This document shows positions 34,530 to 54,172 of a stretch of DNA of 64,000 nt, piece after piece (position 1 is the first letter of the stretch; every line of letters begins with the position of its first letter). Both the position numbers and the translations under genes were made by a program. This stretch comes from Candidatus Dormiibacterota bacterium (GTDB lineage: Bacteria > Chloroflexota > Dormibacteria > Aeolococcales > Aeolococcaceae): contig CAWCVK010000001.1 in NCBI GenBank assembly GCA_963799005.1, forward strand, positions 867,691 through 931,690. The letters run 5' to 3'. Below the pieces are notes generated by a model, which saw nothing but the letters and a program-made list of their open reading frames with translations, searched no databases and was not told where the DNA came from.

Positions 34530-34606
34530 GGTCAGCTAGCTCAGCTGGTTAGAGCGCGCGGTTCACATCCGCGAGGTCGAGGGTTCGAGTCCCCCGCTGA
34601 CCACCA
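34530..34606 (+). tRNA. tRNA-Val(CAC)
   Basis: Acceptor GGTCAGC/GCTGACC, anticodon arm CGCGG-TTCACAT-CCGCG, TTCGAGT T-loop, encoded CCA; one A.C mismatch in the T-stem; TAGACT -10 upstream. Confidence 0.96.
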
Positions 34607-51797: not shown

Positions 51798-52664
51798 TCA
51801 GCCATTGCGCTTGAGCAGCCCCAGCCGCTTGGCGCGGCGTTCCGCCTTTGCGAACACCAGGACCCCGCACGGGATCAGCACGGCGCCCATGCCGAGCAGG
51901 AGCAGGATGGTTCCGAGCAGCGCGCCCGCGCCGGCGTGATCGAGCAATGCCGAACGGATGCCGGTGAGCGTGTACGTCAGGGGCGAAGCGTCTCCCATGA
52001 TCCGGAACACCGCCGGAAGCACGGTCAGCGGGTAGTACACCCCCGACACCAGCAGGAGCACTCCCTGCACGGCGACGGTCATCTGCTCGCCCTTCTCGGG
52101 CGACAGCAGCGGCAGGACCGACGTGAAGATGCCGAGGCCGAGCACGGGGAAGGTCGCGGCGGCCAGGACCAGGAGCGCCGACCCGATGTCGGCGTGGGAG
52201 AGGTCGAGGTGGAACGCCAGCGCGATCGCGACCAGGATGAGGACACTGCGCAGCATCGCATACACGATTGCGAACGAGCAGACGCCGAGCAGGTGGGTGA
52301 CGCGATGGACCGGCGCCATGAACGTGTACTCGATCGTCCCTTCCCACCGCTCCCACGCGATCGCGAAGGACACGTCGAAGAACATCAACGACAGATAGCT
52401 CCACAGCAGCGACCCGACCAGCAGGTACAGCTGGGCCTGCGCGATGTCGACCCGGGCGTTGGCGCCGCTGAACGAGCCCAGCCCCGAAGCGAGGTAGCCG
52501 ATGCTCAGCGTGCTGACGATGCTGTAGACCAGCCAGACGACCTCCCAGACCCAGTAACGGCGATAGAGGTTGCGCTGGCGCTCGAAGAATCCCAGAAACG
52601 CGTTGGCCTCGAGGCGCATCCCGCGCGAGCGCAGATCGACCTCCTGGATACCGGCACTCATCAC
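51798..52664 (-). CDS. ABC-2 type exporter permease
   Basis: ERWEGTIEYTF, SGVYYPLTVLP, SPLTY; about 6 TM segments. Confidence 0.92.
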   Translation of the reverse strand: MMSAGIQEVDLRSRGMRLEANAFLGFFERQRNLYRRYWVWEVVWLVYSIVSTLSIGYLASGLGSFSGANARVDIAQAQLYLLVGSLLWSYLSLMFFDVSFAIAWERWEGTIEYTFMAPVHRVTHLLGVCSFAIVYAMLRSVLILVAIALAFHLDLSHADIGSALLVLAAATFPVLGLGIFTSVLPLLSPEKGEQMTVAVQGVLLLVSGVYYPLTVLPAVFRIMGDASPLTYTLTGIRSALLDHAGAGALLGTILLLLGMGAVLIPCGVLVFAKAERRAKRLGLLKRNG

Positions 52665-53515
52665 GATTCCTCCTCGTCGTCGTCGACTTCGCTGTCGTCG
52701 TCGAAGCTCTTCCCGGTCAGCCGGAGGAACACATCCTCCAGCGATGATCCATCGCCCGACGCCCCGTGCTCGGCACGCAGCGCCTCGGCTGTGCCCTCGG
52801 CCAGGATCCGGCCGCGGTCGAGGATGACCACGCGATCACAGAGGCGCTCCGCCTCCTCCAGGTCGTGGGTGCTGAGCAGCACGGTCACGCCCGATTGCGA
52901 GCGGATGTCGCGCACGAATCCCTGCACCTCACGCTTCGAGCGCGGATCGAGACCGGTCGTCGGCTCGTCCATGAGCAGCAGCGAGGGGCTGGTCAGCAGG
53001 CTCCGGGCGATGGCGACCTTCTGCTGCTGTCCGCGTGACAGCTGCTTCATGGGTCGGTCGACCGTGTCACGCGGGAGTCCGAGCCTGATCAGCGCGGCGA
53101 TCGCGGCCTCGCGGGTGCCCCGTCCACCACGTCCGTAGAGACGCGTGGCGTAGGACAGGTTCTCCCATGGGCTCATCTCCTTGAAGAAGCTCGCCTCGAC
53201 CGAGACTCGATTCACGTGGCGGCGCACCTCATGGCCGTCGTCGACCACGTCGTGGCCGAAGACGCTCGCACTGCCCTCGTCCGGGATCGTCAGGGTTGCG
53301 AGCACGCGCAGCAGCGTTGATTTACCGCTGCCGTTGAGCCCGACGATCGCGACCATCTCCCCGTCGCGGACGCGCAGGTCCACGGCATCGACCGCACGTT
53401 TGAACGCCTGTGCCGGCGCGCGGCGACGCCATGGGCGTCCGCGTCGCTCGCGCCGGAACGACTTCACGAGCTTGGTCACCTCGACGGCGATGCCGCCGTC
53501 ACCTACCCTGGACAC
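52661..53515 (-). CDS. ABC exporter ATP-binding protein
   Basis: GLNGSGKS, LSRGQ, MDEPTTGLD, STH. GTG start 6 nt after SD AGGAG. Confidence 0.95.
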   Translation of the reverse strand: MSRVGDGGIAVEVTKLVKSFRRERRGRPWRRRAPAQAFKRAVDAVDLRVRDGEMVAIVGLNGSGKSTLLRVLATLTIPDEGSASVFGHDVVDDGHEVRRHVNRVSVEASFFKEMSPWENLSYATRLYGRGGRGTREAAIAALIRLGLPRDTVDRPMKQLSRGQQQKVAIARSLLTSPSLLLMDEPTTGLDPRSKREVQGFVRDIRSQSGVTVLLSTHDLEEAERLCDRVVILDRGRILAEGTAEALRAEHGASGDGSSLEDVFLRLTGKSFDDDSEVDDDEEES

Positions 53516-53550
53516 CGATTTCTCCTGCTCACTTTGATGCTCTCTTCTGG

Positions 53551-53588
53551 ACAAACAAAAGGACCGTGCCGGCCGGGCCGCACGATCC
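53551..53588 (-). terminator. intrinsic terminator within the ABC operon leader
   Basis: GGAUCGUGC..GCACGGUCC stem followed by UUUUGUUUGU. Confidence 0.8.
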
Positions 53589-53618
53589 TGTGAGCAGAGC
53601 TGTTCGATGCTCAGAGAC

Positions 53619-53693
53619 TCAAGGAGCGACCCCCGACGTGCGGACTCGTCCCTCTAACGGGGTGAGCCCGATGCCGATGCCCTGCGTCACCAT
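53619..53693 (-). CDS. putative 24-aa leader peptide MVTQGIGIGLTPLEGRVRTSGVAP
   Basis: SD GAGGAG 9-12 nt upstream of GTG/ATG; stops about 30 nt before the terminator. Confidence 0.5.
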   Translation of the reverse strand: MVTQGIGIGLTPLEGRVRTSGVAP

Positions 53694-53736
53694 CACAAAA
53701 AGGCGCTCCTCTGCGCGAAATAACGAACGAGCCGTC

Positions 53737-53765
53737 ATGGTAGGCGCTGCATGCCGCGCTGTCAA
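53737..53765 (-). promoter_or_regulatory. sigma70 promoter of the ABC operon leader
   Basis: TTGACA-N17-TACCAT on the minus strand. Confidence 0.8.
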
Positions 53766-53806: not shown

Positions 53807-54172
53807 ATGTGTCGCGTCTGCATGAAGCGACCGGAGATCCCCGACGAGCGCTACGGCCGCTGCGAGCAGTGCGTCAAGGCGGGTCGCAACGCCTTCCGTT
53901 TCCGGCTCTTTCCGGGGCGTGGGGGCACCGGGTTCACGGTCAAGGCCGGCGAGCTGTCGCCGCACGCGCTGCGCCAGAAGTGGCGCACACCGCTCGGCGC
54001 GTACAAGGGTCACCTCGCCACCAAGGCCAACCTGGGACTCCACGAGCTGGAGATGGTGACCGCCAAAGAGCGAGTCGAGAGCCTGCGCATCGCGCCCGAC
54101 CTCGCCGGCCACGACGCCGAGGTGCTCGCCGCCCTGCAGTCCGCCGCCGAGCGAACCGACTCGGCCTGGTGA
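53807..54172 (+). CDS. hypothetical protein with N-terminal Cys4 motif
   Basis: MCRVC...CEQC; ATG 6 nt after TATCCT. Confidence 0.75.
   Translation: MCRVCMKRPEIPDERYGRCEQCVKAGRNAFRFRLFPGRGGTGFTVKAGELSPHALRQKWRTPLGAYKGHLATKANLGLHELEMVTAKERVESLRIAPDLAGHDAEVLAALQSAAERTDSAW

Follow-up and report, generated by a model that had tools for sequence, protein, structure and literature searches.

A probable leader-peptide transcription attenuator upstream of a two-gene ABC-2 exporter operon in Dormibacteria

Layout of the leader and the exporter operon

The current study concerns a short leader region in a metagenome-assembled genome of Candidatus Dormiibacterota (assembly GCA_963799005.1, contig CAWCVK010000001.1). 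It lies in a 64-kb window, i.e. the whole stretch of 64,000 nucleotides that was analyzed (contig positions 867,691 to 931,690), and all coordinates given here are positions within this window. The unit occupies positions 53765-53513 and is read on the minus strand in the order promoter, upstream open reading frame (uORF), terminator, and the Shine-Dalgarno (SD) sequence and GTG start codon of an ATP-binding cassette (ABC) ATPase gene, which is followed by the gene of an ABC-2 permease. A sequence-only reading of this DNA had proposed a leader-peptide transcription attenuator of the ABC exporter. The promoter, the SD sequence of the uORF, the uORF, the terminator and the SD sequence and GTG of the ABC gene were all found where that reading had placed them, and the comparative evidence described below (uORF, terminator, a covarying antiterminator and linkage to the ABC genes) backs the proposal. 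The features are as follows, with sequences given in the direction of transcription.

53737-53765, minus strand: promoter; -35 hexamer TTGACA (53765-53760), 17-nt spacer, -10 hexamer TACCAT (53742-53737); 10 of 12 consensus matches
53697-53731, minus strand: 5' untranslated region (UTR), about 35 nt; SD sequence of the uORF GAGGAG (53711-53706) within the conserved block CGCGCAGAGGAGCGC
53619-53696, minus strand: leader peptide uORF, V/M-M-VTQGIGIGLTPLEGRVRTSGVAP-stop; TGA at 53621-53619
53622-53652, minus strand: hairpin P-x within the uORF, putative anti-antiterminator, predicted by RNAalifold from the genus alignment
53635-53643, minus strand: strand AT1, CCGCACGUC, the antiterminator of the sequence-only reading; within P-x it covers most of the loop and the two final pairs of the 5' strand
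53623-53634, minus strand: candidate antiterminator strand AT2, GGGGGUCGCUCC, made up of the four final uORF codons; partner, the terminator 5' arm GCGGCCC plus AGGA
53591-53621, minus strand: post-stop hairpin H, UGAGU/GCUCA around an inner GAGC/GCUC stem, from folds
53590-53609, minus strand: strand a of the anti-SD helix, CAUCGA....CUCUGCUCAC, directly 5' of the terminator stem
53551-53588, minus strand: predicted intrinsic terminator; stem GGAUCGUGCGGC / GCCGGCACGGUCC (53588-53561), U-tract UUUUGUUUGU (53560-53551)
53513-53532, minus strand: strand a' of the anti-SD helix, GUGAGCAGGAG..AUCGGUG, spanning the ABC SD sequence AGGAG (53526-53522) and GTG (53515-53513)
52661-53515, minus strand: ABC ATPase, 284 aa, DrrA/ABCA-like; Pfam ABC_tran, E = 3e-31
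51798-52664, minus strand: ABC-2 permease, 288 aa; Pfam ABC2_membrane, E = 2.7e-13; its start overlaps the ATPase stop

The promoter scan found one promoter-like site in 2.5 kb, with 0.2 expected. The elements TTTGAC and CCTA[AC]CAT were invariant across 30 members of the genus, and a TTGAC-N17-19-TAnnnT promoter stood at the equivalent position in nearly all of the approximately 70 leaders scanned. From the promoter position, the start of transcription is predicted at about 53732-53729. The core AGGAG of the uORF SD sequence was kept in 29 of 30 genus sequences. The promoter spacer AGCGCGGCATGCAGCGCC (53743-53759, minus strand) is an imperfect palindrome with the centre GCATGC; it is probably not an operator, since it was not conserved in relatives.

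The distance from the U-tract to the ABC start codon is only about 35 nt (10–14 nt in L127 and L128, two leaders from another class), which leaves no space for a promoter belonging to the ABC genes, so that these genes would be made only when the terminator is read through. The terminator is not that of another gene, because the upstream neighbour is divergent.

Taken alone, the anatomy of this single sequence, an open frame followed by one hairpin, is not above chance. The terminator scan gave one site in the region versus 0.6 expected, and by our own estimate a frame of 25 codons has a chance of about 58% of being open in DNA of 68% GC. The minimum-energy fold of the full-length leader was likewise not significant by itself (z = -1.95; 8 of 200 shuffles folded equally well). 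It is conservation that lifts the feature above chance, and the case therefore rests on the related genomes.

Database searches did not assign the leader to a described family. A search of Rfam 15 with the leader returned no match even at E values up to 10, in agreement with the earlier failure to assign it to a known riboswitch, and the sole match at the Rfam gathering threshold in the window was a tRNA gene (34530-34603, plus strand). Three leader peptides searched against Pfam gave no match and fell into no leader-peptide family.

Conservation of the leader and of its reading frame

Within the genus, the 300-nt leader was 77–89% identical in 32 of 36 genomes. Distant ABC orthologues (60–74% protein identity) that retained upstream sequence were also examined, and there the layout was kept: a TTGAC-N17-19-TAnnnT promoter, a uORF of 21–34 codons, a hairpin with a U-tract, and the ABC start. 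A covariance model built from 39 diverse leaders matched 82 of 151 genomes of the class (Dormibacteria), once per genome except for one genome with two matches, and a permease orthologue was present in 93 of the same 151 genomes. At approximately ten loci compared by coordinates, leader match and permease orthologue shared one strand, with the leader about 0.9–1.1 kb upstream.

In a sample of 401 genomes from the phylum, the model gave 27 matches, including the two genuine ones in another class (L127 and L128), where the leader stands directly before the orthologous ATPase. The weak matches L132, L133, L134 and L136 had neither a uORF nor ABC context and were judged false. On inspection, lineages missed by the model still contained the uORF, and two of them (g9 and g17) also a terminator-like hairpin. 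Judged from this distribution, the predicted unit is old: it is class-wide, has relatives in a second class, is nearly always single-copy and is tied to one exporter.

Several variants were noted among the leaders. In L140 (genus g12) the uORF has 34 codons and ends in FP-UAG, and the hairpin after it lacks an obvious U-tract. In L126, L129–L131, L135, L137 and L142 (family f4) a conserved 5' hairpin, ACACCC-AUCC-GGGUGU, lies upstream of the uORF SD sequence; this hairpin is absent in the genus of the window. In L124 (genome G283) an intact leader precedes an ATPase frame that stays open for only 106 aa, and a permease match was not found, which suggests that this operon is decaying.

The reading frame, start and stop of the uORF were kept in all 30 genus members. 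An ATG at 53693, proposed earlier as the start, is present, but the conserved start is the GTG at 53696, one codon upstream (25 codons from the GTG, 24 from the ATG); in every genus member codon 1 was GTG or TTG, or codon 2 was ATG. The genus alignment contained no gaps within the uORF frame, save for four members with small gaps at the start codon, and 1–2-nt indels in the 5' UTR and in the spacer between terminator and ABC gene. In the C-terminal ten codons the column entropy was 0.30, 0.13 and 0.61 at codon positions one, two and three, i.e. third positions were the most variable. Across lineages the stop codon stays in place while its identity shifts between TGA, TAG and TAA.

The same pattern was seen in distant leaders termed type B (L064–L101), in which the uORF was assigned by anchoring on the AUG frame. 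The distance from AUG to stop was 72, 75 or 78 nt and divisible by three in 28 of 28 distant leaders, and the spacer after the uORF was of mixed length, with 1- and 2-nt indels. These results taken together indicate that the uORF looks genuinely translated. The type-B AUG lies just 9 nt past the -10 hexamer, and the type-B peptides are for this reason probably translated from an mRNA that is leaderless or close to it. In L096, a +1 and a -1 frameshift compensate each other, so that the 72 nt from AUG to stop are kept, and the GGAC motif is replaced by GRSLPT; either the peptide sequence is dispensable there or the assembly contains an error.

The C terminus of the peptide reads G-[GR]-V-x-x-S-G-V-A-P-stop within the genus, with synonymous changes (UCG/UCC/UCU, GGG/GGA and GCU/GCA). 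Class-wide, a G-x-[AV]-[RC] motif was found at positions -10 to -7, in which Gly is encoded by GGC, GGU, GGA or GGG and Val by GUC, GUG or GUU, and F was often present at -13 or -14. The final Pro-UGA is invariant in the genus; outside the genus and a few further lineages the last residue is mostly H, S, R, Y or A. None of the lineages examined had a run of codons for a single amino acid of the kind seen in the trp, his and leu attenuators, in agreement with the sequence-only reading of this peptide.

The two ABC genes make up the whole operon. The ATPase matched the NCBIfam family TIGR01188 (drrA) with 216.9 bits, below the family cutoff, and its top PDB matches were ABCA-type nucleotide-binding domains, a similarity of a generic kind; the permease had no sequence match in PDB. 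By Pfam and NCBIfam the pair groups with DrrA/DrrB-like exporters below the curated cutoffs. A conserved third gene was sought in the operon as a hint to the substrate, and none was found; the downstream neighbours differ between lineages. The ATPase carries a basic insertion, FRRERRGRPWRRRAPAQAFK, at residues ~20–40, early in the nucleotide-binding domain, of which ..PW(W)RR.. is recognisable in all orthologues examined, and a strongly acidic C-terminal tail, DDDSEVDDDEEES. On the other side of the leader lies a divergent ORF of 121 aa (53807-54172, plus strand; MCRVCMKRPEIPDERYGRCEQC...) with two N-terminal CxxC pairs and no match in Pfam or NCBIfam. The leader promoter lies in the same intergenic region, and conservation of the start region of this ORF extends to only part of the genus.

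Alternative RNA structures and the proposed mechanism

The last codons of the uORF were found to match the terminator. The predicted duplex between AT2 and the terminator 5' arm had a mean energy of -16.4 kcal/mol over 42 unique leaders, compared with -9.7 +/- 3.0 kcal/mol for shuffled strands and -9.9 +/- 3.3 kcal/mol for other windows of the same leaders. In the 39-sequence alignment the seven core pairs were 90.8% paired (22–54% in slid controls), and three of them had changed on both sides (7 cells), a result reached by 1 of 500 shuffles. In g17 both strands are unrelated to the sequence of the window, yet they match at 8 of 8 positions (CUGCCGGA with UCCGGCAG). The terminator stem itself has an energy of about -20 kcal/mol; its lower part was 98.7% paired across the 39 leaders, and a T-run followed the stem in every one of them.

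The hairpin P-x sequesters AT2 in the predicted structure. Its 5' strand GGGACGAGUCC (53652-53642) pairs with the 3' strand GGGGUCGCUCCU (53633-53622) across the loop GCACGUCG. Within the genus P-x was 98.9% paired, exceeding 500 of 500 shuffles, with a mean energy of -14.2 kcal/mol. One of its pairs (A1 93-117) is A-U in 16 sequences and U-A in 12, and these swaps sit on synonymous third positions (Gly GGA/GGU and Ala GCU/GCA). Covariation is seen both in P-x and in the pairing of AT2.

In type B the masking strand is the region of the start codon, where UG[A/U]GGC pairs with GCC[U/G]CA at the end of the uORF (A-U in 11 leaders, U-G in 16). Because the start region there pairs with the antiterminator end, the predicted masking principle is constant, whereas its implementation differs between this genus and type B. 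Hairpin H, between AT2 and the terminator arm, brings these two strands together in the folds, and equivalents with other sequences (GAAAGC/GCUUUC, GAUUUC/GAAAUC, CAACG/CGUUG) lie between stop codon and terminator elsewhere.

Three other pairings had been proposed from the sequence alone, and none of them was conserved. AT1 does pair with CGUGCGG here (about -14.7 kcal/mol), but it is not a conserved element. Its energy ranged from -5 to -24 kcal/mol within the genus, it was 72.7% paired family-wide with no compensatory change and not above shuffles, and it formed the minimum-energy structure only at a transcript length of 120. AT1 was thus ruled out as a conserved antiterminator by the missing compensation, the shuffle-level pairing and the -5 kcal/mol in one genus member; the folds suggest that it may help transiently. 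The pairing of the uORF SD sequence with CGCUCC forms 7 bp in this sequence (AGGAGCG-CGCUCCU) but is broken in 13 of 30 genus members, because the column covaries with P-x instead. Closure of the domain by GCAGAG/CUCUGC does not hold, with two of its pairs each broken, uncompensated, in 13 of 30 members.

A further helix was found between strands a and a' (53609-53590 / 53532-53513). Its energy was -16 to -23 kcal/mol in every genus member (z approximately -2.4 to -5.5) and it was 98–99% paired in the genus, the variation consisting only of one-sided, wobble-compatible changes. Both strands differ in other genera (GCUCGU/ACGAGU in L059, GCUCACUG/CAGUGAGC in g17). As a family-wide feature this anti-SD helix was rejected, since it was not significant in type B (z of about 0). 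In this genus it would mask the ribosome-binding site and start codon of the ABC gene, which would add a translational layer on read-through transcripts.

Based on these observations, the leader is probably a ribosome-mediated (leader-peptide) transcription attenuator that gates the two-gene ABC-2 exporter operon. This reading is supported by the uORF with its signs of translation, the conserved terminator, the covarying antiterminator, the linkage to the ABC genes and the lack of space for another promoter. Transcription would start about 35 nt upstream of the 25-codon uORF, and the terminator (53588-53551) would have to be read through. By default, AT2 would be held in P-x by codons -10 to -7, or covered by a ribosome at the end of the uORF, and the terminator would form. 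A ribosome lingering with its P site at about codons 13–17 would melt the 5' strand of P-x, so that AT2 would be exposed as the terminator arm emerges, and pairing of AT2 with the 5' arm would then block the formation of the terminator. With no ribosome present, the local P-x hairpin could form first. The likely signal would be slowed elongation, with ribosome-targeting compounds or a shortage of charged tRNA as the cause.

Folding of the nascent RNA with the ribosome footprint blocked at successive leading edges was consistent with this scheme. For a transcript extending to nt 123–126, i.e. before the 3' arm of the terminator, AT2 together with H was the minimum-energy structure (-27.3 kcal/mol) when the leading edge was at or before nt 62, placing the P site no further along than about codon 16–17. 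At a leading edge of nt 70, with the P site on R-V-R, the upper helix of AT2 was lost and the terminator 5' arm was free, and at nt 90, with the ribosome at the stop codon, AT2 was wholly covered. R-V-R had been singled out earlier as a possible macrolide-arrest-type motif, with the objection that a stall there would cover the antiterminator. Within the genus 20 of 30 members had the motif, whereas lineages outside it have G-G-A-C or other sequences in its place, and the objection holds for AT2. The predicted stall window places the A site on codons 14–17 (UUA-GAG-GGA-CGA). UUA is the rarest codon of the genome (0.2 per thousand), 28 of 29 genus members have GGA or GGU as codon -10, and 26 of 29 have a minor codon as codon -9.

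Several points weigh against the attenuator. Most of the covariation stems from a few deep lineage splits and not from many independent events. At equilibrium the full-length leader prefers the terminator, even with a ribosome blocking nt 62 and below; only a kinetic switch, of the kind used by classical attenuators, fits this result. In lineage g12 the uORF is present without an obvious terminator of the U-tract type. Finally, base-pairing also fixes the rare codons at -10, -9, -2 and -1, so that they need not be control codons; as stall determinants they are suggestive only.

Other explanations of the leader were weighed on the same observations. In one, the attenuator hardware is the same but the sensor is the nascent peptide, whose C-terminal ~10–14 residues would arrest the ribosome only with a specific small molecule in the exit tunnel, e.g. 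the pump substrate or a ribosome-binding antibiotic. TnaC, SpeFL, ErmBL/ErmCL and the Cat/Cml leaders are arrest sensors of this type. The C-terminal end is indeed the conserved part of the peptide, with synonymous variation that includes Gly and Val codons, and its Pro-UGA does not vary in the genus; but no residue is invariant class-wide, the last one being P, H, S, R or Y, and most of the conserved codons also pair with AT2, so that RNA constraint explains much of the conservation. The frameshifts of L096 keep the length of the frame and destroy the GGAC motif, and the peptides match no Pfam leader-peptide family. Arrest at Pro-UGA might free the ABC ribosome-binding site through opening of the CAUCGA/AUCGGUG helix, since the footprint of a ribosome at the stop codon would include 53618-53606, which belong to the anti-SD helix; on the other hand, a ribosome at or near the stop would cover AT2 and favour termination. 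Sensing by the nascent peptide is on balance unlikely. An elaborated form posits a new class of ligand-sensing arrest peptide (G-x-[AV]-[RC]...A-x-stop, ~10–14 residues) with two checkpoints, in which a mid-uORF pause would give read-through and lingering at the rare GCU-CCU-UGA end would open the ABC ribosome-binding site, the ligand being a ribosome-binding natural product and possibly the pump substrate. This form is likewise unlikely, though if true it would mean a two-checkpoint sensor kept through the whole history of the class Dormibacteria.

The remaining explanations dispense with the ribosome as sensor. A ligand- or protein-binding leader RNA (a riboswitch or protein-dependent attenuator), with the uORF incidental or auxiliary, would fit the stretch from stop codon to terminator, which is more conserved than the uORF in the genus and has many invariant columns, as well as the several mutually exclusive helices; the missing match to known families leaves room for an undescribed class. 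Against this, the region from the uORF start to AT2 evolves fast and its AUG-to-stop distance changes only in 3-nt steps, start and stop codons are under selection, no multi-helix core is common to the lineages, and H, the anti-SD helix and the terminator explain the invariant block after the stop. The ligand-binding riboswitch offered as an option by the sequence-only reading is thus not borne out, with no Rfam match, no conserved multi-helix aptamer found and an interior that evolves as a reading frame, and an RNA sensor of either kind is very unlikely. It is highly improbable that the leader is an independent small gene, for a micropeptide or a terminated small RNA, with constitutive leak-through into the ABC genes. 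Such a gene would agree with the ~180-nt terminated transcript predicted by default, and trans-acting attenuator-derived RNAs and leader peptides, e.g. rnTrpL and peTrpL, are known. Nevertheless, every lineage examined had the leader linked to the ABC pair and the two cases of loss or decay agree with this, a covarying antiterminator would be purposeless in a plain terminator, and the peptide is poorly conserved between lineages. The ribosome-mediated attenuator remains the favoured explanation; its mechanism is ordinary, and it is the leader family itself that is undescribed.

Comparison with known systems

The amino acid attenuators trpL, hisL, leuL, pheL, thrL and ilvL follow the 1:2 / 2:3 / 3:4 logic, in which a leader ORF, an anti-antiterminator overlapping that ORF, an antiterminator and a terminator take part. 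The leader described here has the same set of parts, i.e. leader ORF, putative anti-antiterminator, putative antiterminator and intrinsic terminator. It differs from these attenuators in that it has no codon run for one amino acid, it precedes exporter genes, and in this genus the anti-antiterminator and the antiterminator both lie inside the ORF.

In the leaders of resistance genes (ermC/ermB/ermK, cat86/cmlA, msrD, vmlR and lmo0919), ribosome occupancy of a short uORF remodels the downstream RNA, and arrest occurs at defined drug-dependent motifs. Of these, ermK, msrD and vmlR use transcription attenuation. A uORF that would remodel the RNA downstream is common to both, and the class of drug-defence genes is a plausible match. 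Here, R-V-R was found in part of the genus and gives way to other sequences in other lineages, and a stall there would mask AT2.

In the whiB7 leader of mycobacteria and other actinobacteria an intrinsic terminator stands behind a uORF, termination is relieved by translation stress, and the controlled gene encodes a transcription factor. This leader resembles the present leader as a high-GC, Gram-positive-type leader with the same order of uORF and terminator, but here a pump and not a transcription factor lies downstream, and no sequence relationship and no linking Rfam or Pfam match was found.

TnaC, the tryptophanase leader peptide, has 24 residues ending in Pro-UGA, and acts through Rho and blocked peptide release. 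The Pro-UGA end is shared in this genus. The differences are that an intrinsic terminator takes the place of the Rho site, that Pro-stop is mostly limited to the genus, and that arrest at the stop would mask the antiterminator.

The Dormibacteria, once called candidate division AD3, are abundant members of soil, peat and permafrost communities, and essentially all that is known of them comes from metagenome-assembled genomes. A narrow keyword search found no paper on an attenuator or leader peptide in this class. The unit would mark the pump as one reserved for a particular stress. Should a ribosome-targeting compound be the trigger, the leader would point to efflux as an intrinsic and inducible defence of this uncultured soil lineage, and it could be of use as a compact part for biosensors. 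The approximately 70 divergent leaders also offer a natural example in which the last uORF codons appear to double as antiterminator, so that coding, pairing and codon choice constrain the same nucleotides.

The precedent for such a switch is the BmrB leader of the bmrCD operon in Bacillus subtilis. Reilman et al. (2014; PMC4191407) reported that translation of the leader is needed for read-through, that rare codons influence the decision, and that ribosome-targeting antibiotics induce read-through of bmrCD. The two systems have in common a small uORF directly before ABC exporter genes and alternative stem-loops that include an intrinsic terminator, and the slowed elongation proposed here as the signal matches the BmrB-bmrCD precedent. 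The BmrB terminator lies inside the leader coding region, whereas here it lies about 30 nt past the stop and the 3' end of the uORF would be the antiterminator. BmrCD is a type-I heterodimeric exporter, in contrast to the ABC-2 (DrrAB-like) pair. The leader described here further differs in having no sequence similarity to BmrB, in belonging to another phylum and in the addition of the anti-SD helix.

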